In this document: piece by piece, positions 33,203 to 58,633 of the stretch
How the letters are laid out: each line of letters starts with the position of its first letter
How positions within the stretch are numbered: the stretch's first letter is position 1
Assembly: GCA_964187785.1 (NCBI GenBank)
Contig: OZ076409.1
Location: 74,092,001 to 74,156,000 of the forward strand
Source: Amphiscolops sp. MND2022
Lineage: Eukaryota
Reading direction: 5' to 3'
Length of the DNA stretch: 64,000 bases
The notes under the pieces: model-generated
What the model was told of the DNA's origin: nothing
The model's input: the letters and a program-made list of their open reading frames with translations, nothing else
Database searches by the model: none
Program-made: the position numbers and the translations under genes

Positions 33203-35894
33203 GTGCCGGGATTTCTATTCGTTTGGGGAAGATGCGCGCTGTTGGGGAGGGTCCCAGGCGCGCTCAGGTGTTTGTGGTTTTCCAACTTTGGAATCAGCAC
33301 CCGCTGGGAACGATCTCGAGAACTATCCATACGATTTGGCTGAAATTTTGCATGTGGCTCCCAATGGACATTGTAAGAACAAATCCCTACTGGCGTTTTG
33401 CTGGGAAAAATCAAAATGTTGGTCAAAAATGCGATTTTCCGACGAAATTTTTGACTTTTTTTTCTTTGACAGTCAAAATCTCGCCACAGGGTCACGCTAG
33501 CTACCCTAAACCTCCCCAATTATAATTTGCAAAGTGTCTCAGGAATGCGGTGTGAAATTTTCAGGTCAATCGGACTTAAACTCAGCGACTTAGAGCGGTT
33601 TTTTAGGTGCATTTTTTGACATTTTTTGCATTTGCCGATTTATCTCTGCCGTTTTTTGCCCAGATTTTTTTTGAGACCCTCTCCTAAAGACCTCCCCTGG
33701 CCGGTTTACCTCCCAGCAAAACCATTTGGCCCTAAATACCAAGTTTCAGCGTTCTAGCATTCCCGGGCGAAAAGTTGTGGGACTTAGAAAATTTTTTTGA
33801 AAACGCAAAATGTGTAAAGTCTACTTCAGGCCTCCCAAAGTCAAGGAACTTCCACACAACTAGTATTGCAAGTGAATGCATGTGGAGAGTACTCGAATTG
33901 ACGAGGAAAATGAGCTATAGAACGTCTCTGTAGCTTGACCTGACGTTGACTTATGGTGTTTTGAGTGTGAGCTTCCTAAGGGGTCAGAAAATCAAAAATT
34001 GAAAATTGAGTTATTCCAAAGCAAAAACTTCTTTAAATAGGCTAATTAGGTATCAGTAACATGAAACACGGTTGTACGGAGTGATTATTATCATAGGCGA
34101 TACGGTTCGTTCCAAAAAACTTCCAAAAATTCTGCTCTTTTTTCGTAGGTTTTTTTGTCTAGGATTTTTTTCTTTGGTTTTTTCCTTAGGTTATAGGTGT
34201 AGGTTATAGGTTAGGCTTTTTCTAAGGTCCTTTTTTGCTTTCCCTGTTCACAGCATAGTTTGTTTTTAGTGGCAGAAGAAGACGACGACGACCAAGCATA
34301 CGACTTTTTCTTTTTTTTTGGTTTTCCTTGGGGTTAATGGCTATCCCGAAACCAGTGGCTCCTGCTCGAGGGCTTCTCGGGTGCTGGTTTCGTGTATGGG
34401 GTTATCCCCCCCCAGTAGGTAACCTCTGCCCAAATTTTCAATCGTCCCTCGTAATTCGCATTTTGCCGGTGTCTTTTTTTTACGGGCGTTTCGTCGAAAA
34501 AGATAGAATTTTTCTCGGAACCGGCAAAATCGGAAAATCAATCACCAAAAGTAAACGACTTCGAGACTTCGATCTGACTTATAGGGCGTCCTGTTGCTCC
34601 AAAGAAGAACTACAGTTTAACCTTGCTTCAGTTTCAGGTGCCAGTCAATCAAGCTCAAGATGTCTTTTTCTGGAACTTATTAAATAGTCCATAAAATTAT
34701 TGAAAATAGGGAAATTTCCAAAGGTTAGATTTTTTTTGAAATATTGAATGAATGTTTTGAACATATGTGCTAGTACTTTGAAAAACAATAGGAGAAATAA
34801 ACATAAAGTAAATCAAATTGCAGTTCAACTGTTCTAATTGCCTTCAGTTTTAGCTTACAGATAAAGATTCGCCGTAGCGATACGTCACGTAATTTTCTAA
34901 ATCGAATTCGTCGCAATGACTATTATCTGCGCATCGTTCGTACGGTCGTTTTTGAGCATAAATTACGCTCATTGAAAAAATGTGTGATCGTCGTCGTTCT
35001 ATTTCAACGTGTAATAGTCATATGTGCCCTATTATGAAGTCTTATATTTTATCAATTCTCTGCGGGATATCTACTATGATATAATTTTAACCATTTTAAC
35101 ATTTTGACTATTGGTTTTTCGCACCAAACCTATAAATGGATGTTTGATGAATCTGTTTTTCATTTTGATCAAAGTTTTACGTCTTCGACATATTATACAA
35201 ATTTGACACCTTGTTTTTTCCTCAGTTTACACAATTTGACTTTTGGTAGATATTTTGAACCCGCAGAGATAACTTTTCCAATGTAAAGGCTATGTTTATA
35301 ACTCACTTTGTACCTAATGCTCTGAATAATGAATTCCGCTAATAAACGACTTGAAACCTCTTGTACTGTATGTTTGATGTATGTATATTTTGTACTGAGA
35401 GTCAAGTAGCAAAAGTTGTTTCATCAGCACTACGGTTTTAGAGTTTTGATCACTTGTATTTTTTCTCAAACGAGTGATGTGCTCACTGTTTTTTTTCGTT
35501 ATGAAATTGTTTCCGTCAGCCAAAAGAGTATTGAGACAGTTACAGAAAACTCTGACTTTACTGGTCCATCCAAAATTCAGCTTGGACTGATTCTCAATTG
35601 TGAAACAGTTTTTCTTAGTCATTTTTTCGCTTTAAAACGGTGCAAGCGCGGATTTTGTTTATCAACAGTGTATTTACCAAATTTCCATGTTTTGGTTCGT
35701 AGCCCTCGATCTTTTCATGTTGACAGCGTTGCGCATAATTTTGGCTCCATGTGAAATGAGTTTTTTCTTCAAATTTCGGTAAAATTTTTTGGTTCTCACA
35801 TCCCGTCGCTAGCATAATAATCAATCTTGCATGCGAACTTTCTTGTAGATTTTGAAATAGCTGAAAGTTAACGCTTTGGTTGTTTTCCAGGGTT

Positions 35895-38800
35895 ATGGCT
35901 CCAGGTCGCGGTCGCGGACGCGCCAGCAGTCGACCTGTACGAAACACTTGTTCTCAGTGTAGAGTCTTTGTTTCAAGAACTGCTACTCTTTGTGGACAAT
36001 GTACAATCCAACAACAAACAGTTGAAACTGACAACATTTCTAACACTGCCCCTTCTTCTCCCCCTGCTTTATCGCAATCACCTGCACCCGCTCTTTGTAC
36101 ATTATGTAGAACTAATGGAAGTTCACTGGGTTCTCTCTGCAACTTTTGCTGCCCACTCACTTTGTCAAGTTTATCGTCCACAGAGTGCCATAAATGCAGA
36201 CGCAAGCCATCAACCGCTCTAAATAGAATTCAAATTCGGGATGTAAAAAGAACAGCGTTTGGGTGTGTCGTTACTGGATCTCCCGATGAAACGGTGAACC
36301 TCTGCAATGAATGTTTATTGTACTCTATGCACGGTAGCCAATCAAATTGGGCTGCAGCTTGGCCTAGTGTTTTGATCGATTTCCTTACAGGGAAATTTAA
36401 TGGGTCTGTTTGCTCCAAGCCATTCCATGAAGTCATGCCGAAAAACATTATGCAACAGTATCAGCACCTGTTGCCACGCTCAGTTTCTGATAACGATAAT
36501 ATCTTCGATGATCTCACTTCCAAAGTTCATCATTTTAACGAATTGAAACAGGGTTTGACTATTGAAGGTGTTAGAGACGCACACGACAAATATTGCTTCC
36601 CTGAAGTGAGGTGTCCATTCGGTTGCTCAGAATTTGTCGGAGAAACTGGTTTGGTTCCGTTACATTACTTTTTGAAGAAGTTGGACCCGAAATTCAAGTT
36701 TGGAAAAGTCAATTGGAAACACAAGTTAGCTTGTGTTAGACCTGACTGGCTAAGCGAATACAATCACAACGAGATGTTCAAAATGAAGCCTCATGTGTTT
36801 AACGACGAGGTTAAAGGCCTCTGCATAGCTACTTGCAAGTTTCACAATGGTGGCTCCAACAACCAGTTTGTTCACCCGCCTAGTAATCCGACAGGAAGAC
36901 TTCCTTCAAAACATCAAGACCGATTGGGACCCGCAACAATGAGTTACAACTGCTACAAGCCTACTAAACCCAACTTCTCAACGCACACGTTCTCTATGGG
37001 CGTTGCCAAAGGAAACTTTGGAGGCATTAGCTCAACTACCATTGGTTGCAAACGGAGATGGGATGTGGCCTTCGGAAAAGATGATGTCGTGAGAGAGTCG
37101 CTATGTTGTAATAAGCGACAAGATATAAAACCTTTACTTCAAAAATTGGTGAAAAAACGTGAGTTGTCTCAAGACCTTTTTGAAAGCATCACTTCGATCG
37201 ATTCTTTACCATGTTCGGAAAGCATCTATAAATGCCTTCAAAACACAACATCTGTCTCATTTGAATCGTCAATGGCTGTAAAAGAAATGCAAGAGAAAGG
37301 AATAGACGCAGCGTATTTCCCAATTTTTGCTCATCCTTTTGATGAATATGGTAGCCAACCATATGATTTTGCCTTCAGCAACGTCGATCATTTGTTTTTA
37401 TGGTGGTTCTCAACGATGTTCTCTATCAGTTGTAAATTTCACACCGCCCTCCACCTTTGCCATTCGTCACATCATGCCAATTTGAGGAAACTTTTTGCGA
37501 CAATCTTCTGTAACAACAACAAACCAATTGGTCCAAAACAGAAAGAAAACTTTCTTTCATGCATCCAAAGCCTCTCCACAGAGTTCGAAGGAGATTGTAC
37601 TCAAAAACTCAATTCCTTGATGTCCTCAGTTCCGTACTGCAATAAACAAGAAATCAATGAGAGAGGATCTGTCGAATCGATTCTCATGTCAATGGATGCT
37701 GAAGTTGTCAGTTTTGTCAACAATTGCACACGAACCACCCATGATTCGTTTTTGCCCGATCGAGTTGTAACACGGGAAGGACGATCTACATACGAATTGC
37801 GGTCTATCACTGTATTAGAAGGAGATAAAGCTAAAACAGTCATCAGACACGGTAAACAGTACTGCTGTTGGTGGATGTACTCCAGTGATTGCAAAATGCC
37901 ATCCAAGATTAATTTAAACGATGCTTCCAAACTTGTTCAATTTCATTCCAGTTGGAGAACTTGCCATTATGAATTGATAGACTCAGCCAGCATACGAGAA
38001 GCGAAGTATCAATACTTGGAGTATTTGGGAGGCCAAGGTAGGTTCATTTGTGAAAACCACCAGATTCCCCTCACTGTCGTCAATCGTAAGGATTCTTCAA
38101 CTTGTTGTTTCCAAGAAAAATGTAGAAGAAAGGCGGCTTGGCTCTGCCCTGAAGATGACTGTTTCTCTTCAGTCTGTCGACACCACTTCAAGACCTTTTC
38201 AACCAGTACTGATCGAGTGTTAATCAAACCACCGACAACAAATGACTCTATTCATCCAGCATCGTCCGACTTGAACGACACTGCAGACGATACTTCTGAA
38301 TTTTCAGAACCTGATTCTGATATTGATGAATTTTCCTTCGTTCAATTTGCAACAGATGCTGGCCAGGTAGATGATGCTCAGAATATCCTTAACACAGATT
38401 CCGGTGATGTTCCGATTGTTGCGAACACATTCGATAAAAGCATACCAACTCACGTATTACTCAACTCGGATTGCCATGTACTTCAGCGACACAACCTGCG
38501 GAATGAAACGAATAAGAATTCGTCACGATTCTTACAAAACCTTGTTGCCTCGACGCCAGGTGATTCCGTGCCTTTAATTTACCCGGACGCTGCTCTTTTC
38601 CCGACACATTTTTATCATGAACAAGGAGACAATACGTTCACTGGCGCTCTTCCAGCTCCACTTTACAACGATACACAAAGCAAAAAACTGAATTTTGCAG
38701 ATGTCCAAGATCACAAAAGAACTGCCTTGTTGAATCCGAACCTTTTGCAATCAACAGATATAAGAAGTATACAGACCTCATTCGACACAGTATTCAACAA

Positions 38801-41800
38801 AAATCTCAGTTTCTCAGACACCAGACTAGTTTTGAATCGCGGTTTCCAAGAAGTTTCTGTGAATCAACGAAAATCTATTGCCACAGATAACACAAGACTC
38901 CAGTTTGACAGTGCGGATTCCAGAGTCAGAGTCAATGAATTGGCAGCGCTTTTGTCAGAGAAACCCGCTACATTTTTCCTTACCTTGACCTGTAATCAAA
39001 AGGAACATTTTGGGGTGGCGCCAATTTTTGAGGCTCTGGAAAGGAAATTCGCCAGGAATAACAAAGAAGAATGGGAGAAAGCCGTACAAGCTGAAATAGT
39101 TTTGCTCACCCGAGCTTGGTACCGTGCTGCTGTTGCCTTAATGGATTACATAGAGAACTCCGCTGAGAAACCGTTGGGAACAGTCACAAAGCTTTGGTAT
39201 AGATTCGAATTCCAATCTACCAAGGGCAATTTACCCCATATACATGCTGTCATCTGGACAAATGAAAAACGTGAAGAACTTCAACACAAGGTGTCCTGCT
39301 CTGGTTCTTCTGCTATGTTCGAGTTGAAGAAAGTTGCCGCTGAAACTCAACTATTTCAAGATAGTGAAATTCTAAACATTTGGGAGCTTTTGATGACAGT
39401 GCAAACTCATTCCTGTGAAAAAGCCGGGTTCCGTTGTCATAAGGTTGTCAAGGAGAATGGGGAAAGCATTTGCAGAGTTCCAAGATACCCCTTCTCGAAT
39501 ATCTACTCTTGGAGACGAGTTCCTGCGTGCCATTCAGACGAGGCTTTGGAAAAACTTTTTTATCTCGACTTAGCTGTTCCTTCGTCTTCCAAAGATAACA
39601 CTTTTGATATTTGTCCATCTCTCCAAGGTGGCAAATACGAATACCCTGCCTCATCAGATGAACATCTTTCGCCATTCAATGTACTTCTCTTCGCTTTGAC
39701 AAAATCATCTCAGAATCTGCAAATTTGCGATGAATATTTGTCGGCAAGATATATTGCTAAATATGCAGCGGGAGTAGAAGAACGAGCAGATGCTAGAGTT
39801 GACCCTATCACTTTCAAGGATGTCAAAGTTAAAACGAAAGGAATGAGAAACATCAAGGTTGCTGGTGTCAAACTTAGAGAAAAAGAGACTGACAAGAAGT
39901 CCTTAGTTCAAATAATTTCTCTGGTCGAATCCATCTGGTGGCTTTTGGGATTCAATTACGTCTACAGTTCTGTTTCTTTTGTCCATCTGTCTACTCATGA
40001 AAAAACAGAAAGAGCAACTTTTCTTAAACGTAGAGTTCCCTTGCTACAATCAGACTCGTTACCACTCCACGTGACGAAAAGTTTCAGCTTGCCAGCAGCC
40101 CGTCAATACACTCAATCGCAACTTATGTTGTTAAAAGACTATTTGACAAGTGACTACACCAATTGCAAAATTTCCCTTTTCAGTGGACGTCCTCCAGCAC
40201 TTTTGTTCGTTGACAATCCACGCTTGTATTTTACTTGGTTTAAACGTGTTACAGTGCATAACCCGGACAAAAAACTTACAACGAATGTGTCTACGTCTTC
40301 CTGGATCGACCTCTTTGGTCAAGTTGTGTATTTGCGACGATGTTACTTTGAAGACTTCCGAAACTACTATCTACGTTCAATGACTGAAGGTCACTCCAAT
40401 TTGTTCCGATTCAATGCTGATACATCTATTCTCGATCTACAAAACGACGTGATTGGCTTGAAAACAATAAATGACAGTCTTGTTCAAGTTGTTACTTCGA
40501 ACATTGTTCCTTCAAGTCCATTCAAATTCCTAATTCATTACGCTCTTTCAAATGGCTGTTTCGAAACTGAGATTGACTTATTTAATCATTCAAACATGCT
40601 AGAAGTTTACCAACATTGCAAGCTCTTGCCTGAATCCTCCTCCTTGACACAGCAGGACGCATTCACATTGATTAGAAGATACGTTTTGAATGAGCTCAAA
40701 TTTTTACCTGGAGCAAGCCGGTCTTTCGATAGACACCTGATATCATGCTTTGATTTGTTCATGAATTTGGTCATGAATAATCAAATTCACTGCTCCGCTT
40801 TGCCACCAGCATTACACTGTGAAATTACAGAAGAAGCAGAAATAACTTACCACTTGTTCAACCACCAGAAAAGAGAAAGATCTGTGCAAGGTTGTCTATT
40901 GAATTCTGCCTTACAACCGTTACAAAGTAAACAAGATCAATTTATCGATGCAACAAGGCAGAATCCTTTTCCTTATAATTTTCCTTTCCCGCGAGCAGTC
41001 GGACAATCCGATGAATCCTATTTGTTCCAGCAGCATGTTTTCGATAAGTGCCTTGAGAAATTAGAACTCTTCGTACACGGCATTCAAGGTTTTGTGAGGC
41101 ATCAGCTTTTTCTAGGCCGTCCAGGTAGTGGAAAAACTTTAGTTTGTACGATGTTGTTTTTGAAAGCTGTTGCGAAAGGCCTCAATTGTTCCATCACGTG
41201 TTTGAGCGGAGAGCGTGCCCAACAGCTTGGAGGCGAACACGTACACAAAATGTTTAAATTCCGAGTGAATAAGATGAAGATACCGGAACACATGGCCAGT
41301 CAAAGTATTAACTCCCTGTTAAAAGATGTCACTAGATTTACGGATTTGGAACGCCTCGAAGTTTTGTTTATTGACGAAGTTGGTCAATTAAGTTGTGAAC
41401 TTCTTTCTGCCATGGAAATAGTGCTACAGAATGTACGGGACAATCGGCTTCCGATGGGTGGAGTGTTAACTATCATGACAGGCGATCCAAAGCAATTGAA
41501 ACCCCCTGATGGATCCTTAGTGTGGTTATCCCCAAAAATGTTGACCAACTACGATTTTCATTACTTTCAACATTATGTACGTGCAACACCTGGTCTTTTG
41601 CGGGAAGTCCTTACTCGATTAGACAACACCTCAATCACAGAGATAGAAGCTATAGACATCGCGAAGAAAATAATCTCTACTTGCGTTATCAAATCATCTT
41701 GGGAGGAAGAAAGAGATAGTTTTCAGATGCGAGTATTCAGTACAAGAGCTGCGGAACAGCAGGCAGTCTTGAAACATACGCAAATTGTCATGAGTGATGG

Positions 41801-42902
41801 ATCACGAAATTGTGTCCAATTGGTTGCAACAGACGAGGAGAGCTCAACCGGCTCTTCTATATGGCTCCCTGCGTCTCCGCAAAACAGCAGACATTTGGAT
41901 ATACATTCTATTACCCCCAGCAAATTGATATTGTACAGAAACGCGCTTCTCAGATTTACCGCGAATATACCTAATCTTCAGGCAAGACAGGGTCAGCTAT
42001 GTGTTATAATGGAGACTCCTTCTGCAACCGCGTCTAGTTTAGAAGTTTTGATTGCACCTCCGGGATGCCGAACAGTGACCTCTAGTGATGAGTTGATTCT
42101 GCTGATGTCAGGCTGGAGAAAAGTTACCGTCAATCAAGTGTACACTCCAGTGTACACAAATAAAACTTCCTTTCTCAGACGCTACTTTTTCCCTCTAAAA
42201 AACTATGTCGCGTCTACAATCCACAAGTGCCTGGGCGACACATTTCCGAAAATTGTTACTAAAATCTCCTCTACCGATTCAGATTATAAGCTTTGGGAGA
42301 AAGAACAGCTGTTGGTACTTTTAAGCCGAGTGTCAAAGTTGGAAGAAATTACCTTCATTGGTGAGAAAGCTGATATAGAAGCCACATTGTGTACAATCAT
42401 CCAAAAACAAAACTGTTGGAGCGAATTCATAGAAAACTTTTTAACTAGATTGAAACCATCCTCCAACCCCAACTCAACAGCTTCGTTGAACTTAACAACA
42501 ACATGCTTCTCGCCTTGGAACACAGTATTACCAGCTGACGAGACTGGATTCGTTTATTTACTTACCAGTACCAAAATTGCTAGCGCTTTCTTTATCGGCG
42601 AAACAGTTGGTTTGAGAAAATGCTTGAAAGAAATAAATTGTGGCTATGGTCCCGACAGCACACGGCCCATAGAAAGGCGACCTTGGGCATTACTGGCCTT
42701 TGCTACTGGGTTCACGACCGAAAATATGATGACGAATGCCAGACAGAGAAAATCATTAGAAGCAACCATGACTCACAAAGCAGCACAGCTCGGCCCCAAT
42801 GTTTCGTCAGTATCCGTTTTCCAAATATTCAACGATTGTGCCAAATGTTTTGGAGACGTCAACCAACAAGAAATTTGTGTGGTTCAATGTGGCCAAATAT
42901 GA
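35895..42902 (+). CDS. RepHel-type transposase, ~2335 aa: RG-rich N-terminus, Cys-rich Zn fingers, HUH/Y2 Rep, SF1B Pif1-like helicase, C-terminal GIY-YIG-like domain
   Basis: Rep motifs FFLTLTCN, FEFQSTKGNLPHIHAVIW and YIAKY. Helicase motifs GRPGSGKT, FIDEVG, GDPKQLKP, STIHKCLG and VLLSRV. C-terminal GFVYLL..FFIGET..RPWALLAFATGF. ATG 35895 chosen because it follows TTTCCAG-GGTT, as in the paralog. Confidence 0.93.
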   Translation: MAPGRGRGRASSRPVRNTCSQCRVFVSRTATLCGQCTIQQQTVETDNISNTAPSSPPALSQSPAPALCTLCRTNGSSLGSLCNFCCPLTLSSLSSTECHKCRRKPSTALNRIQIRDVKRTAFGCVVTGSPDETVNLCNECLLYSMHGSQSNWAAAWPSVLIDFLTGKFNGSVCSKPFHEVMPKNIMQQYQHLLPRSVSDNDNIFDDLTSKVHHFNELKQGLTIEGVRDAHDKYCFPEVRCPFGCSEFVGETGLVPLHYFLKKLDPKFKFGKVNWKHKLACVRPDWLSEYNHNEMFKMKPHVFNDEVKGLCIATCKFHNGGSNNQFVHPPSNPTGRLPSKHQDRLGPATMSYNCYKPTKPNFSTHTFSMGVAKGNFGGISSTTIGCKRRWDVAFGKDDVVRESLCCNKRQDIKPLLQKLVKKRELSQDLFESITSIDSLPCSESIYKCLQNTTSVSFESSMAVKEMQEKGIDAAYFPIFAHPFDEYGSQPYDFAFSNVDHLFLWWFSTMFSISCKFHTALHLCHSSHHANLRKLFATIFCNNNKPIGPKQKENFLSCIQSLSTEFEGDCTQKLNSLMSSVPYCNKQEINERGSVESILMSMDAEVVSFVNNCTRTTHDSFLPDRVVTREGRSTYELRSITVLEGDKAKTVIRHGKQYCCWWMYSSDCKMPSKINLNDASKLVQFHSSWRTCHYELIDSASIREAKYQYLEYLGGQGRFICENHQIPLTVVNRKDSSTCCFQEKCRRKAAWLCPEDDCFSSVCRHHFKTFSTSTDRVLIKPPTTNDSIHPASSDLNDTADDTSEFSEPDSDIDEFSFVQFATDAGQVDDAQNILNTDSGDVPIVANTFDKSIPTHVLLNSDCHVLQRHNLRNETNKNSSRFLQNLVASTPGDSVPLIYPDAALFPTHFYHEQGDNTFTGALPAPLYNDTQSKKLNFADVQDHKRTALLNPNLLQSTDIRSIQTSFDTVFNKNLSFSDTRLVLNRGFQEVSVNQRKSIATDNTRLQFDSADSRVRVNELAALLSEKPATFFLTLTCNQKEHFGVAPIFEALERKFARNNKEEWEKAVQAEIVLLTRAWYRAAVALMDYIENSAEKPLGTVTKLWYRFEFQSTKGNLPHIHAVIWTNEKREELQHKVSCSGSSAMFELKKVAAETQLFQDSEILNIWELLMTVQTHSCEKAGFRCHKVVKENGESICRVPRYPFSNIYSWRRVPACHSDEALEKLFYLDLAVPSSSKDNTFDICPSLQGGKYEYPASSDEHLSPFNVLLFALTKSSQNLQICDEYLSARYIAKYAAGVEERADARVDPITFKDVKVKTKGMRNIKVAGVKLREKETDKKSLVQIISLVESIWWLLGFNYVYSSVSFVHLSTHEKTERATFLKRRVPLLQSDSLPLHVTKSFSLPAARQYTQSQLMLLKDYLTSDYTNCKISLFSGRPPALLFVDNPRLYFTWFKRVTVHNPDKKLTTNVSTSSWIDLFGQVVYLRRCYFEDFRNYYLRSMTEGHSNLFRFNADTSILDLQNDVIGLKTINDSLVQVVTSNIVPSSPFKFLIHYALSNGCFETEIDLFNHSNMLEVYQHCKLLPESSSLTQQDAFTLIRRYVLNELKFLPGASRSFDRHLISCFDLFMNLVMNNQIHCSALPPALHCEITEEAEITYHLFNHQKRERSVQGCLLNSALQPLQSKQDQFIDATRQNPFPYNFPFPRAVGQSDESYLFQQHVFDKCLEKLELFVHGIQGFVRHQLFLGRPGSGKTLVCTMLFLKAVAKGLNCSITCLSGERAQQLGGEHVHKMFKFRVNKMKIPEHMASQSINSLLKDVTRFTDLERLEVLFIDEVGQLSCELLSAMEIVLQNVRDNRLPMGGVLTIMTGDPKQLKPPDGSLVWLSPKMLTNYDFHYFQHYVRATPGLLREVLTRLDNTSITEIEAIDIAKKIISTCVIKSSWEEERDSFQMRVFSTRAAEQQAVLKHTQIVMSDGSRNCVQLVATDEESSTGSSIWLPASPQNSRHLDIHSITPSKLILYRNALLRFTANIPNLQARQGQLCVIMETPSATASSLEVLIAPPGCRTVTSSDELILLMSGWRKVTVNQVYTPVYTNKTSFLRRYFFPLKNYVASTIHKCLGDTFPKIVTKISSTDSDYKLWEKEQLLVLLSRVSKLEEITFIGEKADIEATLCTIIQKQNCWSEFIENFLTRLKPSSNPNSTASLNLTTTCFSPWNTVLPADETGFVYLLTSTKIASAFFIGETVGLRKCLKEINCGYGPDSTRPIERRPWALLAFATGFTTENMMTNARQRKSLEATMTHKAAQLGPNVSSVSVFQIFNDCAKCFGDVNQQEICVVQCGQI

Positions 42903-43213
42903 TTATATCTTCACTTATTCAATGGTGAGATTCAATGAGGAAGTTTGCTATTTATTGAATTCAAACTGCAATAAACTTTAGAGTTTGCCGGGATCACGCA
43001 GTGAGCCCAAGGCAAACTCTTCCTGAATATCAGTATAAACAGACTTTGATTCTATTGTTTACTTATGTAAAATTGTTTGTTTCTTCAAATTGGTTGTTGC
43101 AAATCCGAATCCATTATAATACGGATTCCATGTTAATTTGTAATTGGACACTCGTTGAACATTGTTGCATTGAAACTCATATCGGAATGAATTTTATTCA
43201 TTCGACTGAAATC

Positions 43214-43381
43214 AGAAAAAAAACAAAAAAAATGACATGACGGATGAGACAGAAAAAAACAAAAAATTCGACATGATGGATGAGACAGTTCAATTATTGC
43301 ACTCTATTACTCTTTTTCCAAGGACGAAGTAGTAGTTCTGATTGAAGTAGCTAGTTCTGATTGCAAGTAACTCTGAATGCT
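43214..43381. repeat. Short local tandem duplications in the RepHel-ORF2 spacer
   Basis: GAAAAAAACAAAAAA..GACATGA(C/T)GGATGAGACAG occurs twice, and (G)AAGTAG..TAGTTCTGATT occurs 2-3 times. Confidence 0.6.
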
Positions 43382-43459
43382 GCAACGAAGTATTAAACAA
43401 CTAATGAAATATGATTTTTTTCAGAAACTCTGTTATTGTACACATATTGCTTGAAAGAC

Positions 43460-44626
43460 ATGCCTGTGATCAACAAAGATTTATCTTTGGAGGAAGCAGC
43501 AACGAGAACAACAACTAAATTAACGTCCATTTCGCTGTCCGAAGTGTTGGAGGGGGCTTCTACAGACAGAAAATACCTTCTATGCATTTTGCTGCATGCC
43601 AAGAAGTGCGTAAAAGCGGTGTCGTACTTCAAAATGTCACAAGGACAAAAGCAAAGGCATGAGACTAGCTTTAACAGGTTCCTACTGTTAGGAGTTTTGG
43701 GAACTGATAAGGTTATTGCCATCTTTACTTACAACCAGCAAGAGAGTGTGGAGCTCCTTAGATTCTGTGATCATCTGACTCCAGGTAAAACGTGTGCGCT
43801 GATAATAGGCAAATTTGATCACAAGTTTATGGGAACGGTGTCGACAACACCAATAGTATCAACTGTCGAACCCCTGGTGCCTCTTAATATGAAAAGTTTC
43901 CCAATTGTTAGCTGCCCCCGGAATGTTTCTTCGCCAGACTTCGTACAGTTTAACATCATGACAAAAAACTTGACCCTCACCAATGTGGACGCAGTTTCTC
44001 CAGTCTGTAACGGTGTTTTCTGCGACGGTCAACCAAAGGGTGAATGTCCCTGTTTGGAAGTGGATAATAGGAATACCAGTTGGGTCCTTAGTGCTGATGT
44101 TGCTTGTTCAGAGATATACCATAGTGCAAAAATACGATCGAAGAATTTGATCTCCTTGTTTGCCCCTGAATGTAAAAAGGCTGATCCAAGTAAACGGCTG
44201 TTCGATGTTTTGGATCTCTCTGATTGTGTGGACGCATGTGTGGCCAAAATAAATGCAGCTAGTGGATGGAAACTGTTTGGATGGCTTAAGCCTACTGAAA
44301 CAGCGCTGGAGACAACTAATTATGACTGCGACATTCACATAGTTCACATTTGTCCTTGTGTTCCAGCCGAAATAACAGCTGGTTAGTCCATTTTGTTTTC
44401 CATCTGCATTGTTTCCGCATTGACTATTCAGTTGTTTTTTGATACAATATGCAAAAACCTAGGACGGAACTTTGTCATGACATTTAAGGAAACTAACGAC
44501 ATACAATCGTGCAGAAGCTTTTTGATTTTGCAAGTCGAGTTTCTGGAACAATGAATTTTTTCAGACGACTACAAAGCTCATCATTACAAACTACCGGCAA
44601 CAGCTGCAGTTGTTTTGGGCGAATAA
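43460..44626 (+). CDS. Accessory ORF2, predicted two exons (43460-44381, 44565-44626), 327 aa; Cys-motif protein, possibly OB-fold/RPA-like
   Basis: Clear paralog at 58634. Exon 1 is 922 nt in both copies with a phase-1 GT..TTTCAG intron, and both second exons encode YxxxxYKLP. CNGxFCDGQPKGxCPC is conserved. The function is inferred only. Confidence 0.85.
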
Positions 44627-45429
44627 AGTCAAAGATTCACAAACAGTTGTGTACCATGTCGCTCCTAAAAGACATTTACAACCAGAGACATCGAAAGATT
44701 TGAAATTTGAAGTCAAACCTACACTGGACAACAATTGAGTTGAACTCATGTATAAACTGTGCTCGTTTCCCATATTTGTCAAATATGGTCTAGTAACATT
44801 TCAATTTAAAGTAAAACAAATGAGCATATGAAATAATGATTCTTCTGTTGATTGTTTATAAGGTTACTTAGTGAAAACAACTATGTTGTTTGCAACTTTG
44901 GTGATGTATCCTGTTCATTACAAGTATTATTTATTTGTTGATATATTTTTGTTTGTTTTAATTAACAGATTATTCGCTATATTTCTTTGAAATCGACTGT
45001 ACATTAGACATTCACACAAGGTAGGATATTCAAATCAGATTATAAGCTTTCTGGGTAAAGTGTATTTTGATCATTTAAACAAGTATTACATAGCATGTAA
45101 ATGAGTGCTTATTTTTTTTATTAGATATATATATCAATTATAAAAATACATATAAAATTATATAAAGAGCATCCTTTTTATCGCAAACTTGTCACGTTCA
45201 ACAAATATTTTCTCCAGAAAAAAACTAAAAGGTTGAGCTATTGTGATTTTTGATTTTTTGGAAAATTAGCGAACTCCAATTCAAAAATTATAGTATATTT
45301 TAAATATGCTCTTTATATTTTCAACGCCCAAAGTCACAAATCAACGCTCATAGTCCGTAGGCATGCCGAGGCATGCCTTTCGACGACGTATGCCAAATAC
45401 CTTAAAACCGACGCGCACTCTCCCGCTAG

Positions 45430-46717: not shown

Positions 46718-47991
46718 GTGCCGGGATTTCTATTCGATAAAGTATGTGGCGCGTGTGGGTAGGGTCCCTGGCGCGCTCTTGGGTATGGTGTTCACCAGCT
46801 AGGAAATAGGGGTCGATTTTTCGGGATCTCCTAAACTAGCCACACGATTTGGCTGAAATTTGGCACACGTACTCCCCTCGGCACGGTGAAGATGATTTCC
46901 TACTGACGTTTTTCCCGCAAAATTTTTTTTGTTGTCCAAAATAACGGTTTTTGGTGGAAAATTTTGAACTTTTTTTAAACTTCATCTTATATCTCGCCAC
47001 CGGTTTACGCTAGCGCTTCAAAACCCTGCTAAAGAAAGCTTGCAAACTGTCTCAGGAATGCGGTGTGAAATTTTCAGCTCAATCAGACTCAAACTCAGGG
47101 AGATATAGCGTTTTTCCGGAGCGGGGGGGTTTCATTTTTCTAACGGTCCAGCTTATCTTTGCCATTTTTTCGAAAATGTACTCGCCTAAAGACCTCCCCT
47201 GGCCGGTTTTATTCCCAGCAAAACCATTTGGCCCTAAATACGGAGTTTCAGCGTTCCAGCATTCCCGGGCGAAAAGTTGTGGGACTTAGAAAATTTCAAA
47301 AATTTTCAAAAAATTTTTTTCCGTTTTCCGCCCTCCCCCCCTTGGGGAAAAGACCCCCCAACCAGTAATTTGAGTGAATTCATGTGGAAAGGCCATGTAT
47401 ACACGAGAAAATTGCCGTATAGAACGTCTTTCTATCTCAATGTGACATTAATTTAAGATGCTTTAAAAGTGATGTTTGGACGTGTGAAGCATGTAAAAAA
47501 AGGAAGTAGCAACGAACAATTTTGAATACATAATATATATTTCAAGTCTCTTTCAAAGAATGTCTTTAATAAACTCAATAGGAATTATTAACCTAATAAA
47601 TTTTAGATAATGAACAATAACAAACTATAATCAAAAACTTTATAAAGTTAGTATTGATATGAACATAATATTTATTAGGTACTTTAATTGCACATTTTTA
47701 CAAATGTATAGTATATAGTATTTAATATACACTAAATATTCATTGTGAAAAAGGTATAGCTTTCAACTTATAGTATTAGAAAGTATTTTGTTTTCTTAAA
47801 ATTTCTTATAAAAATAAAGAAATTGGTGTATAACAATAAATTCATTTCGAGCAGAGTAATATATTTTTAACTATTGAATTTTTTAAAATGTTGTGAATAG
47901 AAAGTCATAGTTGTTTGGTGTTTCAGTTCTCAAATCTAACTTATCATTGTGAAGGATGTGGTTTCAACTTTGAACTTTTTCAGAGAAAAAA

Positions 47992-48610
47992 ATGAATAGC
48001 ATCAATACAATTAATGATGAACGCGTAAGGGCTAAAGAGGTTTTAAAAGAAGCTGAGAGCAAGGAGATGTATTTAACCGTGGTTATAAAGTCAAAGACAA
48101 AGAAACCTGAAATTGATTTCAATACTAAAAAGGAGGCATTTGAGTTTGCTGAAAGTTTACTGCGTCAAATGAGTTTGGGCGCATCAAAGGTTACTGTGTC
48201 TGGTTTCAAACAGCTTTGGCTTCACTTGAATTTTGAAAGAATGAAGGTTAACATTTAACAGCATATTTGCAAATATCAACACTTCCAAAAAATTCGTCAT
48301 TATACAATTTAAATTTTTTAAGGACGCAAATCTCTGCAAGGAGTGGATAGAATCAAACAAAGATCTGAAAGAAAAATATCTAATTTATACAACCAATTTT
48401 CAAAAAAAACCAAGTATCTTTCATCAAAGTTGCAACCAAGGAGTAAAAAGACCACCACAGCATTTTCTTGCACCAACAACGAATGATACATCTACACCAA
48501 GTCGACAACACACAGCAAAAGATCTAAAATCAAGAGATGGGAACTTCAATCACGATACATTCATCAAAAACAAAAACAACAAAGATTACAAGCGACCAAA
48601 GATGTTTTAA
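47992..48610 (+). CDS. Predicted two-exon cargo gene of unknown function (47992-48246, 48323-48610), 180 aa
   Basis: ATG is preceded by TTTTTCAG. A phase-0 76-bp GT..AG intron joins the 85-codon exon to an uninterrupted 95-codon frame (DANLCKEWIESNKDLKEKY...KRPKMF*) in otherwise stop-dense AT-rich DNA. Confidence 0.6.
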
Positions 48611-50745
48611 GTATCGTTCTAATTTATTTTAATTTTTCGGTAATCATCAATGATATAAAAGTTGATTTATCTTTCTTGTTTTAGATGGAACTACAGTTGA
48701 GACCTTTAGGATCATAACTTTTGAATTATATCTGAGAAAAAATTGATAAATTATGGTATTGAAGATTTTTAGTTTTTTTTTGGTTTCATATGAATTAGTT
48801 GTGATCCTAAAATAGTCTCAAAAGAAAGTGCCATTGTATGCCGCAGATGACTCACAAAGACTTCTGGGACGCTGGGATGGTGGATTGGAAACAGAAAAGC
48901 ATTTAATACAATAAATAAGTAAGGGTATTTGTTATATCTGGAATTATTTTGTTTAAAAACATATTACTCTGACTCGAAATAATTTTGAAAAGTTTGAAAT
49001 AATTTTAAAGTTATTCAACGGTGTTCAGTTGGTTCATTAATCGAGCTGAAAGTACCTAATACACTAGAAGAATGCAACCAGGAGTTTTTATTCAGACAAT
49101 TTGTTGGAGTTTCATCATTTGTCTAAGTAACAAAAATATGACAAACTTTAAATAATAAATATAATTATTATAATTTTCATTCTGTTCATGTTCTTTAATT
49201 TCGAATAAAAATTTTTTGATATTATAAAATATATACATTTTATTGATATTATGTTTTCAAATCAATATTATATAAAAACTATATTATTATTAAATAAGAA
49301 ATTAAATCATTTTCTAAAATTTAACATATTAAATATTTTAAAAATTTGTAATTTTTTGAATTCAAATATTATCACAAACTTAAAATTAAAAACCTTTACA
49401 AAAAATCTTTCTTAAAAAGACATATAAGAATTTTTTTGTTAAAATTACAGTAACATAAATACATGAGGTGAGGTCTTTGGGTTTTAAAATACGGCTCATC
49501 AGAAGTTAGCTTGCGGCGTTATGCTGGTGGCCCTTCTGGTGATGCTATGTCCCCCCTATTTTTCGTGGGTAACCTATGCCCAATTTTTTTTCAGGCAAAA
49601 ATTTCCGTTTCGTCATTTTTAATCTCTGTTTTTTCAATTTTTTGAAAAAGATACATGAAATAGATTTCAAGGTAAGATGTGTAATAAAATTTTTCTAATT
49701 GTTTACACCTGTGGCTTGTTTTTGTATAATTAAATTTTAATTCCAAATTCAAATGCCTAATATTTTTACTTTCCTCATTTTTAAATCCATGCGTTTTGAA
49801 CAATTGAAAAAAATGAACTTTTGTGAAAATATTTACTTGTTAAAAATCATAAACATGATAAAACCTTTTTTTCGGCTTTTATTAGTTGAAACCGAAATCA
49901 ATTGCCAATTCTAAATGCAAACGCCGGAAAGCCTTAATTGGTTTCATTACTGCTCGATCTGAAAATCCGCAGGAAAAAAATGTTTAAATGAAGGCAAAAA
50001 CATATGTATTATAAAATGAATATTGAACATTCAGTTAAAAAAGATTCAATTCAGAGCTGAAAATCAAAAATTCTTAAACTTATAGATAAAGAATTTGGAA
50101 TTAGAATGATTTGGATTTTTGTAGTTGTTGAAATAATACTATATAGCCATAAAATTCATGACTTATGTTTCATTGTATTTCAAAATTTAACTTTGAATTG
50201 CTCAATAAAGATGTTAGAGACCTCTTGTACAGTATGTTGGATGAATGAATATTTTATACTGAGAGTACAGTGGGAATGCTATATAGCTAAATAATGACTA
50301 CGTTTCGCTTTTCCTATACGTATGAATTTGAAATCGTTCTCATAAATTCGAGTGGTCATACAGTTGCATCAAAATTGTTTTTCATATACGGATCATCGAA
50401 CGACAAAATACAAAAGGTATTTTACATTCGTTCTTCAAATGTTTTGAATTTGACTAAATTCAAAATGGGAATTTATATAAAACGCTCAGTCGATTTGTAA
50501 TTAGGGATGATTTGAAACTCTGATTTGTTATTGAAACACTATCTTTTTATTCGAGTTGATAATTTCGATTATAAAAAACAAGGTGTTTTTTGTTGAACGT
50601 GATTTTTTTAGTTATTTTCGAATCGTACGGTCGCTTTAATCGGCAAAAGTGGATACGTCGAGTCGTTTGATGTTTTAATAAGTACCGTTACGGTATTAGT
50701 TTAAAGTTTTCGATTTTCATCGTGGTATATATCTATTTCAGGGTT

Positions 50746-53700
50746 ATGGCACGTGGTCGTCGAAGTCGTGCTCGATCCACACGTAACACATGCACTCGAT
50801 GTAGAGTATTCATATCCAATTCCGCTACTCTTTGTGACAATTGCATTGGAGCTTCTCAACGAGCTGGTGTTATGGATACTACTTCACTTCCTTCAGATGA
50901 TCATCATCCAGTCATCTGTTTATTATGTAAAACAGAAAACGCATTTGTCGATTCTCTTTGTACAAGTTGTTGTCCAATTACTTTGACTACTATTACATCA
51001 GCCGAATGTTTCAAATGCAGGCGTATTCCCTTGACTGACCTAAACAGAATTAACGTTGGAGAAATGAAGAGAACGAAGTTTGGCTGCAATATTACAGAAA
51101 CATCATCACTGAACGTTGTTAACCTGTGCGATGAATGTACTCAATACTGTGTGGCAGGTCGTCAAAATTCTTGGTCCAGTGTTTGGCCTAGTGCTATCCT
51201 CGATTTTTTATGTGGCAAATACAAAGGATCGATATGTGGAAAACCGTTTCATAAAGTTTTGCCTTCAACAATTATGCATGAATATGAGCATCTCCTGAGG
51301 AATAACAATCCAAATGTTGAAACATTGTTCGAAGACCTCACCCCAAAAACAAAAGAATATAAAGACTTGAGGAACGATATGAGAATTGAAAACATCAAGA
51401 AGGCATACAATAAATATTGTTTCCCGGAGGTTAAATGCCCTTTCGGTTGTTCAGAATTTGTTGGCGAGAGTGGGCTTATTCCCATGCAGTACTTTTTAAA
51501 AATGTTGGATACAAACTTCAATTTCGGTAACACTAATTGGAAAAAATGCTTCCGATGTGTTAGACCTGATTGGTTGTGCAAATATGTCCACAATGATATC
51601 TTCGAAATCAAGCCTCATTTAGTTGTTGATGAAATTAAAGGCATTTGTGTATCTACGTGTCGTTTCCATAAGGGTGGTTCAAGTAAAATGTTTGTTCATC
51701 CCCCTACGAATCCCACAGGACGATTGCCATCAAAAACCTCCGATAGATTGGGCCCTGCAACAATTTGTTATAATTCATACAAGCCCGCTAAAGCAAATTA
51801 TTCAACTCATACCTACTCAATGGGTGTAGCCAAAGGAAACTTCTCAGGCATCAGTTCTACAACAATCAGCTGCAAAAGAAAGTGGGATATTGCTTTTGGA
51901 AATGATGATGTAGTCCGAGAATCACTATGCAGTAACAAGCGTAAAGACATTAAGCCTCTTCTCCAAAAATTGGTACATACACGTGAAATCTCACAAGATT
52001 TGTTTGAAAGCATAACTTCTGATTGTTCTCTGCCTGATTGTGCTTCAATAGCTAAATGCTTACAAAGTTCAACGTCTGTGCCTTTCGACGCTTCAATGGC
52101 CATAAAAGATATGCAGGAAAAAGGAATTGAAGCGAAATGTTTTCCATTTTTTTCGCACCCCTTGGACAGTTACGGTTGTGAGCCTCCTGATTTAGCAATT
52201 GCAGATCCAGAACAACTTCATATTTGGTGTGTTGCTGTTATGTTTTCGTTGAGTTGTACATTCCATATAAATCTTTGGAATTCCAATTCTCCTTTGGATA
52301 TTCATTTGAAAGACCTTTACAATCTTATGATATGCTACGATGGAAGGGCTCCTGATTCAACTCGCAAAAGAAATTTAGTTACTTGTCTTCAAAGTCTAAA
52401 TAACCAAGTATCTGATGTTTTATCGACTAATATTCGAGAGTTTCTAGATACCATTTCTTGGTGTAAAAATTACATTGTTACAGACAGAGACTCTGTAGAA
52501 ACATTGTTGAGCGATAATGACAATACAGATATCGTAAGCTTTACAACTCAGTGCCGGATGAGCCCAAACAACACGTTTCTTCAGGACAGATTGGTTACAC
52601 AAAGTAGACTTTCAACATACGAGCTGCGTTCAATTACAATGATAGACAACAATAAGTTGAAAACACTTGTAAGACATGGAAAACAATATTGTTGCTGGTG
52701 GATGTTTTCAAGTGATTCATTGACACCTTCAAAAATACAAATGGATGAAAATTCACTAATGTGCAAATTCCATTCAAGTTGGACATGTTGTCATTACGAA
52801 AGAATAGATTCAGTGGATATTCGTGAGAGAAAGTATCAATATTTAGAATATTTGGGAGGTCAAGGAAGGTTCATTTGCGAGGATCACGATGTTCCTTTAA
52901 TAGTTGCAACTTCAAAACAATCAACTGAGTGTTCTTTTGACGAAAGATGTCATCGAAAAGCTGCATGGAAATGCCCTGAAGGTTCTTGCACATCCGCAGT
53001 TTGCCGCAAACACTTCAGTCAGCACGCTGTAAATTCAGACAGAATACGATTACAGGCACAACCTGTGACTGCAACTAATATTTCATCACCTACAGAGACA
53101 TATTTAGGTAATGATAATCGGCAATCTCAACAATCTGATGAAGACAACTTGTCCGACATCTCTGACCCAGAATCAGATTATGATGAATTCTCGTTTGTAA
53201 ATTTTGCAACAGATTCTGGTCCCATTCAAAATGCCACAGATTTGAGTGCTACGAATTCAGGTGACGTACCACAATTTCTGGATGATTCAAACAACAGTAT
53301 TCCAACTCATGTACTGCTGAATTTTGACTGTCACGTACTTCAAAGGCAGAATTTGAGAAATGAAAGACACAAAAGTTCTTCCCGTTTTTTACAAAACATT
53401 GTTGCCTCGTCCGCGGGTGATTCAATTCCTCTCATTTATCCAGATTCATGTCTTTTTCCAACACAGTATTATCATGAACAGCAAGATAAAACGATGACAG
53501 GTGCTATTCCAGCACCCCTTTACAACGAGAAACAAAGCAAAATGTTCAACTTTGCCGACATTTCAGATCAAAAACGAACTGCTCTGCTGAACCCAGCTTT
53601 GCTCCAATCAACAGATGTTAGATACATTCAAACAACTTTTGACACAATCTTCAACAAAAATCTCAATTGTTCAGACACAAGGATTGTTCTGAACCGCGGA

Positions 53701-56700
53701 TTTCAAGAAATAACAAACAAAAACAGTAAAAGCATTTCGTCAGACAAATCAAGACTTCAGTTTGACAAAGCCGACTCACGAGTGAGAGTAAATGAATTAG
53801 CTGCACTTCTGAAAAGTGAACCAGCTACGTTTTTTCTGACTTTAACATGTAATCAAAGAGAACACTTTGGTGTTGCCCCTATTTTTGATGCATTGGAAAC
53901 CAAATATGATAGAAACAACAAAGACGATTGGAATAAAGCAGTACAGGCCGAAATAGTTCTGTTAACGAGAGCCTGGCATCGTTCGGCCATGGCTTTAATG
54001 GAATACATTGAAAAATCACCAGACAAACCGTTGGGATCAGTGACAAAAATTTGGTTTAGATTCGAATTTCAAACCACAAAAGGTAACCTACCACATATAC
54101 ATGCAGTAATTTGGACGAAAGAAACCAAGGAAGAACTCAAATACAAAGTCTCATGCTCAGGAAGTTCAGCTTTATTTGAATTAAAAAAAATTGCAACGGA
54201 AACCAATTTGATAGATAATGATGATGTTCTGAATTGGTTAGATCAACTGATGACCGTACAAACGCATTCGTGTGAGAAAGCAAATTACCGATGTCACAAA
54301 GTAATTAGTGAAAATAGAACAACACATTGCAGAGTTCCAAAGTATCCTCAGTCACACACCTACTCTTGGAGAAAGATTCCGACCTTCCATTCTGACGAGG
54401 CGCTGGAAAAACTTTTTTATCTTGACTTGGCCGTCCGTTCTCAAAATCGAGATGATACATATGATGTTTCCAGTGCACTACAAGGAGGGAAATTTGAATA
54501 TCCAGCGTCAAGTGACGAGCATCTTTCCCCATTCAATACCTTACTGTTTGTAATTACAAAGTCGTCACAAAATCTTCAACTTTGTGATGAATACCTGTCA
54601 GCAAGGTATATTGCTAAATATGCTGCAGGAATTGAGGAACGAGCAGACGCACGAATAGATCCCAAAACTTTCAAGGATATAACAATAAAAACGAATGGCA
54701 TAAAGAACATTAAAATTGCTGGCACGAAGTCAAAATTTGTAACAACAGATAGAAAAACTCTTGTTCAAATCCTGGCCCTTGTGGAAACAATTTGGTGGAT
54801 ACTTGGATTTGATTATGTTTACAGTTCAGTAAAATTTATTCATTTATCTACACACGAGAAGAGTGAACGAGCAGGAAAATTGAAACGAAAAACAACGATT
54901 GCTTCGTCAATAGAATTACCAAACTACGTTAGAAAAATTTCAACTTTCGAATCAACAAGACATTTCACCCAAAGTCAATTACTATTGTTAAAAGACTACT
55001 TATCATGTGAGTTTGTTAATTGCAAGATTTCCATATTCAGTGGCAGACCTCCAGCTCTTTTGTTTGTCGATAACCCAAAACTTTACTTCACATGGTTCAA
55101 AAGATCGTTCGTCAAGAGTCCAGAGACAAAAGTAAATTCCAATGTACATCTTTCAACGTGGATAGATGTATTTGGTTACGCTGTTCATTTGAGAAAAATA
55201 TATTTAGACGAATTTGAAAAGTTTTATGATCAAGCAATTTTGAATGGAAATCACAACTTACACCGATTCAATAACGACACTTCCATACTTTACCTGAAAA
55301 ATGATGTTACTGGAATAAAAACAGCCGAAGACATGCCTGTTCAAGTTGTAACATCCAACATCGTTCCTTCAAATCCATACAAGTTTCTTGTACACTTTGC
55401 TTTGTCTTATGGATGTTTTGAAACAGAGATTGACTTGTTTAATCAATCGAATATGATCGAAGTCTTCAAATATTGTAAACTTCTTCCAATTACTACACCT
55501 TACACAAGCGAACACTATTATGCTCTTGTGAAGAAATACGTTCTCGATGAACTCAAATTTTTACCGGGAGCAAGTCGGTCATTCGACCGTCATTTTCTTT
55601 CAAGCTTCAATGTGTTCTACAACCTTGTCATGAATAACCAAGTTCATTATGATGCAATACCTTCTGTTTTGCACTGCGAACTTTCAGAAAATGCTGAGAT
55701 TGATTATTTGTTATTTAATAATCAGAAACGTGCGAGAAGCGTGCAAGGATGTCTGCTCAATTCTGCTCTGACACCTTTACGATGCAAACAAAACGACTTT
55801 TTGGAAGCAACTCGAGAGAAACCATTTAATTACAATGTTTTGTTCCCACGAGCTGACGGACAATCTAATGATTCTTATGAATTTCAACAGCATGTATTTA
55901 AAAGATGCCTAATGCGTTTGGACTCCTTTATGCGTGGCAATCAGGGTTTTGTTAAACATCAATTGTTTCTCGGACGTCCTGGTAGTGGGAAAACCTTAGT
56001 ATGCACTATGCTTTTCTTAAAAGCTGTCGCAAGAGGACTAAATTGTTCAATTACCTGTTTGAGTGGCGAACGAGCTCAACAATTGGGTGGAGAGCATGTT
56101 CACAAAATGTTTAAATTCCGAGTCAATAAAATGCAAGTACCAGAACATATGGCAAGTCAAAGCATAAATGCACTCATGAAAGATGTAACCCGTTTTACAG
56201 ACCTTGAAAGACTTGACGTTTTATTTATCGATGAAATTGGACAACTTAACGCTGAGCTTCTTTGTGCTATGGAGTTAGTCCTTCAAACAGTTAAAGAAAA
56301 TAGACTTCCAATGGGTGGTGTTTTCGTAATTATGTCAGGAGACCCCAAACAGTTGAGGCCCCCTAACGGTTCACTTGTTTGGCTTTCACCTAAACTGCTT
56401 AGCAATTATGATTTTCATTATTTCCTTCACTACGTACGTGCTGTTCCTGGATTGTTGAGAGAAATTCTTTACGAGCTTGACGAAAATGAAATCAATGAAT
56501 CAAAAGCTGCTGAGATTGCCAAAGTCATAGTAACAAATTGTATTATCAAGGATTCTTGGAACAATGTAAATGATGATTTTTCAATGCGTGTATTCAGCAC
56601 AAGAGCTGCCGAACATGAAGCAGTAAAACAGCATACAGCAAAAATTACTAACAATACATCTTGTCCATCTGTAACAATGAATGCTGTAGATGAACAAAGT

Positions 56701-57837: not shown

Positions 57838-58633
57838 AAAAAGAACATAACTGCAATACTACATATGTTTGGTTGACCTAGTCACAAAGTGACGTTAGGT
57901 CAACCGTTTCAATCACTGTGATATAGACACTGCAATGGTGCTGTTTTGTTTCAAAAACTTATTACAAAGATGAACTGAAATTGTTGATAAATTATCTCAC
58001 ATTACTCAATATGGGCATATATATTAATATGTTAAAAATAAAAACCATACTCAGAAAAAACGTTGTATTATATATTAAAATTTTGCAAAAAATTGAGAAC
58101 AGGAATTAAATGAAAAATATTATAAATTATATAATTAAAATTTATTCTATTCAATGAATCGGAAAATTGTTCACTTGATAAAAGTTATTATCGTTATGAG
58201 TATGGTTTATTTTTAATAATGACAATATTATATTAACATAAGAAAATGATTTTAACTTGGATCTTCAATACAATTTCATTAGGGTGTTTTATTTGTATTT
58301 TGTTGAGCAGTTAATGAGGCACATGTTGGTTAAAATACATAACTTTACTCCCATTGTAAATATGTATTGGGATAATTGTATGCATTAGTTAATGATTTTA
58401 ACTTTATTGATGAAAGTTAATAAAAATCATAAATTGAAAACAGATGAAAATGAGAAAGTTAAATTATTTACCATTAAACATTTTTCGTTAGATAAGGCAA
58501 AAAAGTAGAAAATGAAAATCTGGTTTTCTTGGTGATTAAAAAATTTTGTGGTTCATATTATTAATATATGTGTCTGAAATTGAAAAATGTATGTTTTTTT
58601 CAGTTTGTGACTTGATACTTTAAAGCCTGAATC

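Follow-up and report, generated by a model that had tools for sequence, protein, structure and literature searches.

Helitron-like elements (HLEs) are rolling-circle transposons whose target choice has so far been described as a bare dinucleotide, A|T or T|T. Two described groups come closest to the system considered here: Helitron1/HLE1, to which Helraiser belongs, and Helentron/HLE2. Helraiser has been described as forming circles that link CTAG to the element's 5′ end (PMC4778049), and the HELIANO study presents an RPA gene downstream of the Rep-helicase (RepHel) gene as the HLE1 pattern (PMC11417382). Helentrons carry an extra nuclease, the role of which is an open question. Here, we describe a 64,000-nucleotide stretch of the Amphiscolops sp. 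MND2022 genome (GCA_964187785.1, contig OZ076409.1, positions 74,092,001 to 74,156,000, forward strand; hereafter the window), which reveals a real Helitron-like lineage whose RepHel ends in an SLX1-type GIY-YIG tail, degenerate yet conserved, and whose copies stand in mixed arrays joined at a CTAG|GTG junction. The reading we prefer, with moderate confidence, is that the domain, predicted to be catalytically dead, is probably retained to bind DNA or to serve as a scaffold within a transposase that probably inserts at CTAG|GTG between existing copies.

The window contains two autonomous elements on the + strand. In copy 1 (33203-45429, 12,227 bp from GTG to CTAG), the open reading frame (ORF) at 35865-42902 (+) spans 2345 amino acids (aa) from stop to stop, or 2335 aa from the first ATG (coding sequence 35895-42902). 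All the motifs quoted in a first-pass annotation of the sequence are present, and the in-frame fusion that it proposed at the RepHel C-terminus is confirmed by a frame that runs uninterrupted from helicase motif VI (VLLSRV, 42315) through GFVYLL at 42546 to the stop at 42902. Both RepHels consist of a Cys-rich N-terminal part, a HUH Rep and a Pif1 helicase, the copy 1 motifs lying at 38976 (Rep motif 1), 39234 (HUH), 39750 (YxxKY) and 41115 (Walker A). Pfam recognises Helitron_like_N (31.4 bits) and PIF1 (32.5 bits), both exceeding the cut-off, and Rep residues H1125, H1127, Y1296 and Y1300 are unvarying across 30 aligned members, with the Pif1 helicase in the same ORF. In copy 2 (46718-60631, 13,914 bp), the ORF at 50671-57567 halts directly after FATG (57567), and the portion running from GF to RKNLQ is reachable only after excision of a predicted 81-nt GT..AG phase-1 intron (57563-57643), which lies within the GIY-YIG domain and is absent from copy 1. 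The predicted splice joins exons 50746-57562 and 57644-57837 into a coding sequence (50746-57837) whose tail aligns to that of copy 1 without a gap. Two other clusters in the protein collection, P0011 and P0042, stop at the same FATG position, like unspliced gene calls.

Judged by profile and structure prediction, the C-terminal ~120 aa of the 2,335-aa copy 1 protein (42546-42902; 57400-57837 in copy 2) are an SLX1-type GIY-YIG domain. Taken singly, the domain falls under the Pfam cut-off (GIY-YIG E 0.018, 15.8 against 22.6 bits), the single window domain matches PDB sequences only at E 0.2-1.4, and the GIY-YIG clusters returned by the ESM Atlas at 0.88-0.89 serve as a lead only. A profile built from eight domains of the family retrieves seven PDB sequences at E<=1, all seven of them GIY-YIG (five SLX1, two UPF0213), with a best match at E 9.7e-6, and a full-length profile of 30 relatives scores Slx1 at E 4e-14 against E 3e-5 for a bacterial UPF0213 protein. 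The AlphaFold model of the domain (140 aa; 48-row alignment) reaches a predicted local distance difference test (pLDDT) of 93.8 and a predicted template modelling score of 0.87. A VIA-align search with this model recovers the GIY-YIG fold of SLX1, the top three structures being At-HIGLE (Z 10.7) and Slx1 (Z 10.2 and 10.0), with a root-mean-square deviation of 2.2-2.5 Å over 102-106 residues; the following match is at Z 6.8, and UvrC and 1ywl are at Z 4.3. The SLX1-type identity suggested by the first-pass annotation is thus upheld at both the profile and the structure level. The C-terminal RING finger of orthodox Slx1 is absent, as the protein ends ~120 aa past the domain start, and the model of this end contains a helix-helix-strand arrangement only.

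Read codon by codon, the catalytic positions show the losses that had been noticed by eye. Copy 1 (Y/F/C/I/E) keeps the first Tyr (TAT, 42555) and the Glu (42759), with Phe for the second Tyr (42591), Cys for Arg (42621) and Ile for His (42633). Copy 2 (Y/Y/S/H/Q) keeps both Tyr residues (57409 and 57445) and the His (57487), with Ser for Arg (57475) and Gln for Glu (57694). In At-HIGLE numbering, the copy 1 substitutions are Y45F, R55C and H59I and the copy 2 Arg substitution is R55S, these three positions being mapped by family-profile alignment to At-HIGLE and the Glu position by family alignment only. The full set of Tyr, Tyr, Arg, His and Glu is absent in both window copies and present in the relatives P0007, P0045 and L001. 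Arg-to-Ala mutants of SLX1 are dead. The R55 residue of At-HIGLE is described as touching the scissile phosphate, and the E-to-Q mutants Cg-Slx1 E79Q and At-HIGLE E95Q as inactive. The window-copy domains are predicted to be unable to cut DNA.

The history of this catalytic state can be followed across the lineage. Relatives were collected with phmmer using the last 606 aa as query, which gave 230 clusters at E<=1e-30, and the best 150 of these were analysed. The GIY-YIG domain is found in 137 of the 150, a count biased upward by a query that itself held the domain and favours domain-bearing relatives; the 13 domain-less relatives mostly end at or just past motif VI, like cut gene calls. When the 137 were surveyed for the catalytic residues, Y/Y/R/H proved intact in 106, 105 of which also keep E, and among the remaining 31 (three of them truncated) E is kept in only 8. 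Because the Y/Y/R/H set is mostly intact among relatives, the ancestor of the lineage was probably an active nuclease. On a FastTree phylogeny of 144 helicase cores (cores >300 aa from the best 150 of 230 plus 12 further proteins, minus truncated rows; 109 intact, 35 degenerate), the catalytic state switches 13 times, with 8 switches forced by well-supported branches. A 16-row tree with long-branch warnings and five open nodes was excluded from loss counting. Within the local family, 9 of 11 tree rows are degenerate, and P0007 and P0045, which represent close subfamilies, are intact.

The first-pass annotation had also proposed a distinct RepHel lineage with a possibly inactivated domain. The distinct lineage stands, on signatures of its own; its definition by a dead domain does not, with Y/Y/R/H intact in 106 of 137. 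Rep motif 2 reads ExQ-x(3-7)-GNxxHxH in most of the 64 members parsed out of 82 long ones, W.R or F.R precedes it in 58 of the 64, and no RGSP (Ser before PHxH) was seen. Pfam scans of 36 long members (2 + 18 + 16, at E cut-offs of 1, 1e-3 and 1e-5) reported neither AP endonuclease nor DUF6570. Against the 30-relative profile, Helraiser (7lcc) reaches 84.5 bits, which does not exceed the 89 bits of yeast Pif1. Separate status for the lineage is supported by these Rep and domain signatures and profile scores. Some members carry extra proteases, namely an N-terminal OTU domain in P0077 and a Ulp1-type C48 peptidase after the GIY-YIG domain in P0105. A scan of viral contigs returned only 8 weak helicase matches.

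The two autonomous elements are embedded in a head-to-tail array (806-63232, +) of 26 complete units between 27 CTAG|GTG junctions, with partial units reaching both window edges. Eighteen units measure 1.26-1.39 kb, six measure 2-3 kb and two are autonomous, and no host sequence lies between them. The + strand of the 64-kb window contains 27 instances of CTAGGT where ~7 would be expected, and the opposite strand 8, close to the ~8 expected; all 27 + strand occurrences read CTAGGTG, and a GC-rich hairpin lies 36-53 nt ahead of 26 of the 27 junctions. In Mantel tests on 26 junctions, similarity is linked within each side (r 0.41-0.84, p 0.0002), with no linkage across the junction (r -0.01 to 0.11, p 0.07-0.51). 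Among 13 pairs at least 90% identical downstream, the exact run continues leftward for just 4-7 nt in 12, and among 13 pairs alike upstream, the shared run continues rightward for just 3-7 nt in 11. Unit boundaries are confined to CTAGGTG, the exact break inside this motif being fixed by analogy. Units that are 95-98% alike occur in differing neighbourhoods and align end to end, from GTG to CTAG, at up to 97-98%. The autonomous copies are of the same unit type and have their first ~800 bp in common with the short units. With ~1 expected in each autonomous copy, the lack of internal CTAGGT (0 seen) does not amount to significant avoidance.

The same junction is found outside the local family. 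L001, one of six lineage loci found (L001-L006), is 33% identical over 847 aa and has an intact active site. It ends in CTAG followed by GTG, and its last 17 nt together with the next 60 nt (L001 6002-6078) resemble the two ends of unit 14056 of the window. L002-L006 contain no CTAGGT, in sequences that are short and may stop before the element end. Judged by unit ends, two lineages seem to share one array. The equal junction next to an intact nuclease in L001 makes the junction independent of catalytic loss, and the GIY-YIG domain is probably not the target selector, because intact and dead versions accompany an identical junction. The suggestion of the first-pass annotation that the domain could recognise the junction finds no direct support here.

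From these boundaries we infer targeted insertion at element junctions. The strongest competing explanation, which we regard as a minority possibility deserving serious weight, is that the array arose as rolling-circle concatemers later reshaped by unequal crossing-over. Known Helitron tandem arrays are attributed to rolling-circle replication (PMC12001565), and one adjacent pair of units, 20851 and 22824, is 96.8% identical, as local duplication or a dimer formed by rolling-circle replication would produce, which counts against targeted insertion. Linkage also falls from r 0.84 immediately upstream of the hairpin to r 0.41 across it, and some shuffling therefore occurs. Against the concatemer explanation, among the 18 short units, to which the neighbour test was confined (the other 8, including 20851 and 22824, being left out), mean identity is 67% for 13 adjacent pairs and 68% over all pairs. 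Moreover, it is in a 7-nt motif that linkage is lost, whereas homologous exchange would be expected to fall in the longer conserved hairpin motif, and a single array mixes units that their ends assign to two lineages.

Loss of the catalytic residues has not been accompanied by decay of the domain. When copy 1 is compared with spliced copy 2, synonymous sites prove saturated (proportion of differing synonymous sites, pS, 0.77), which leaves no numerical ratio of nonsynonymous to synonymous rates; the proportion of nonsynonymous differences (pN) is 0.185 in the GIY core (67 codons), 0.175 in Rep, 0.21 in the helicase and 0.34 in the post-core tail. Part of this divergence may predate residue loss. 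Across 36 local pairs in which both members are degenerate, non-catalytic core identity is 0.66 against 0.70 for the helicase, and in 5 degenerate pairs outside the local family it is 0.65 against 0.59. By these sequence comparisons, the domain is as conserved as the helicase while its catalytic state changed at least 8 times. Three degenerate clusters comprise 5, 6 and 11 distinct full-length members that are 88-100% identical, counts that assembly haplotypes could inflate. At the At-HIGLE DNA-binding positions, the local degenerate family is basic in 9/9 members (R57), 9/9 (R39) and 6/9 (R54), which makes a DNA-binding role plausible in this family.

Several points weigh against the reading of a dead domain kept for binding DNA. 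The members of the local family are closely related, and the 9/9 counts are not independent cases. The 26 degenerate relatives outside it are depleted of basic residues (mean net charge 0.3, compared with 2.9) and have also lost the G-x-G..T loop; DNA binding is therefore no general reason for retention of the domain. An invariant Arg lies two residues upstream of the lost one in 9/9 local degenerate members and might partly stand in for it. The AlphaFold alignment consists mostly of intact relatives, and, as said, the relatives themselves were gathered with a domain-bearing query. Arg to Ser is one base change, and some of the 13 state changes may be reversions.

That the domain is a structural cap packed on the helicase, without DNA binding, is an unlikely but respectable explanation: the 35 degenerate members keep the structural positions (P, G, S, N, PW and GF, at 0.77-1.0), and the basic residues and glycine loop erode beyond the local family, whereas in the local family the net charge is still positive (3.0) and the positions of At-HIGLE sites I and III persist. 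As far as residue patterns can indicate, binding to DNA is the favoured role in the local family, and a structural one in deeper degenerate members. An alternative in which the domain still cuts DNA through a rearranged active site, the upstream Arg serving for instance as a substitute, is improbable. The invariance of this Arg in the local family speaks for it, as do several subfamilies that lack Arg only and keep Y, Y, H and E, but copy 1 is without three of the five residues, copy 2 carries the E-to-Q change that inactivates Cg-Slx1 and At-HIGLE, and residue losses co-occur across the lineage. Slightly more improbable still is the view of the domain as a pseudogenising relic that no longer serves a function, since, for all that catalytic residues were lost stepwise and differently per subfamily and the post-core tail is less conserved (pN 0.34), core constraint equals that of Rep and helicase, and early-ending full-length local members either terminate where the intron is predicted (P0002, P0011, P0012, P0042) or carry a break before the domain (P0013, P0020, P0026).

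With targeted insertion and a retained DNA-binding module as the preferred reading, a model can be drawn by analogy with Helraiser. Rep would nick the element at its GTG 5′ end, and the helicase would peel one strand away while the product of a downstream gene, ORF2, would coat the stripped strand. Synthesis would terminate at CTAG beyond the hairpin and leave a circle whose joint reads CTAG|GTG. In the simplest model, the HUH domain would then cut and join at CTAG|GTG in donor and target alike; this use of the joint as target is suggested because all array junctions match the predicted circle joint sequence. Insertion at CTAG|GTG would stack unrelated subfamilies head to tail. The ancestral GIY-YIG domain may have trimmed a flap or fork during transposition, and in the window copies this cut would be dispensable, or be supplied in trans by intact sister subfamilies or by host enzymes.

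ORF2 lies downstream of RepHel in both copies, at 43460-44386 (+) in copy 1 and, 64% identical to it, at 58634-59611 (+) in copy 2, and is predicted to encode a two-OB-fold single-strand DNA-binding protein resembling RPA70, Teb1 and POT1. Homologs form 9 clusters, and L001 carries one at the equivalent position (L001 4032-5099; 25% identical). The model of the copy 2 protein is of mid confidence (pLDDT 74.7), and its two domains match the OB folds of Teb1, TEBP, MCM10, CST, RPA70 and POT1 at Z 7-8.7. Pfam gave no family at useful significance, PDB gave no sequence match, and the Atlas recognition score lies below the reliable mark. We assign ORF2 as an RPA-like protein with moderate confidence, based on the modelled folds. 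ORF2 is conserved and also has a Cys cluster; GT donor-like sites lie close to the end of both window copies, and a further 3′ exon is possible.

Other features complete the picture of the array. The 3′ end of copy 1 (45360-45429, +) consists of the GC-rich hairpin (45360-45377) followed by CTAG (45426-45429), and that of copy 2 (60561-60631, +) is likewise a hairpin followed by CTAG. Ahead of both RepHel start codons (35881-35897 and 50731-50748) lie a pyrimidine tract, CAG and an identical GGTT, resembling the acceptor of an intron in the 5′ untranslated region. The copy 2 element (46718-60631) has a GC content of 0.34, against 0.40 for copy 1 and 0.42 for the short units, and despite this AT-richness it matches units 31915, 45430 and 61949 at 94% identity over its first 780 bp. 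The unique 5′ region of copy 1 contains, at 34186-34215, a TTAGG-like short repeat (TTAGGTTATAGG). Non-autonomous units of 2 kb that form one family and carry an internally duplicated segment of ~180-240 bp are found at 8538-10507 and 20851-26785, three of them in a row. The 2,965-bp unit at 17886-20850 has a short-unit-like first kilobase and a second partial copy 877 bp on, and is possibly a truncated or nested insertion. Unit 14056-15316 is without the common hairpin and has L001-like ends. The window has no terminal inverted repeat of at least 40 nt, shorter ones not having been searched for, and no Rfam family.

If insertion occurs only at the element's own ends, it would represent a harmless-site strategy for a Helitron and a way for transposons to build satellite arrays, and would offer a candidate tool for site-specific integration. 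Centromeric Helitron arrays have reportedly been treated by Xiong et al. 2016. P0007 (intact) and P0001 (dead) form a natural pair from close subfamilies that makes the question of the Helentron nuclease testable. Standard repeat annotation may miss the clade because Pfam barely scores its proteins. A broader view, which we put forward tentatively as somewhat less probable than not, is that RepHel-SLX1 proteins with an RPA-like gene define a third major, largely uncatalogued clade of eukaryotic rolling-circle elements that integrates at its own junction and builds satellite-like arrays common to families as distant as 33% identity, its SLX1 domain having been repeatedly turned into a pseudo-nuclease that would hold branched intermediates without cleaving them.

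The lineage can be compared with several known systems. With the SLX1 nucleases (At-HIGLE 7wme; Slx1 6seh/7cq2/4xlg), the window domains share the fold, motif order, RPW and GF signatures and basic DNA-binding positions, but they lack the RING finger, are fused to a transposase and have lost catalytic residues. A GIY-YIG domain besides RepHel is mentioned for HelenSM92, an HLE2 family of Sphagnum magellanicum (Suppl. Fig. S8 of PMC11417382). As far as that description goes, HelenSM92 differs by its HLE2 type, short inverted repeats and TT|TT sites, and it may or may not belong to the window lineage. No other report of a RepHel with GIY-YIG was found beyond this mention, in a search that left subscription journals, theses, Repbase reports and bioRxiv supplements outside its scope. 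A Paramecium HLE clade (PMC13085455) is described as divergent, outside HLE1 and HLE2, inserting at a specific sequence and piling up with non-autonomous copies, as here; by the same description, its ends are CCAA and its targets telomeric repeats, and "GIY" is absent from the main text and 7 supplement files of that paper.

Helentron/HLE2 elements, as described in PMC4067079 and PMC11417382, resemble the window elements in having Rep, Pif1 helicase and a C-terminal nuclease fused in one ORF, an aromatic-x-Arg ahead of Rep motif 2 (58/64 here) and short non-autonomous partners. They differ in that their nuclease is an apurinic (AP) endonuclease and not GIY-YIG, that their marker DUF6570 is unreported in the 36 members scanned here, that their Rep motif 2 is RGSPHxH rather than the longer GNxxHxH (PMC4067079) and that their ends are T-flanked short inverted repeats inserted at T|T rather than GTG...CTAG. 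Compared with Helitron1/HLE1 (Helraiser, 7lcc; PMC4778049), the window elements have a 5′ GTG instead of TC, a target other than A|T, a hairpin 36-53 nt ahead of CTAG and a Rep motif 2 unlike the ExQxRGLPHxH given for that group (PMC4067079), and the description of Helraiser consulted includes no GIY-YIG domain. In common with Helitron1/HLE1, they have a two-tyrosine HUH Rep, an RPA-like gene downstream of RepHel and the 3′ hairpin and CTRR end of the HLE1 type, with CTAG at 27/27 junctions and the hairpin ahead of 26.

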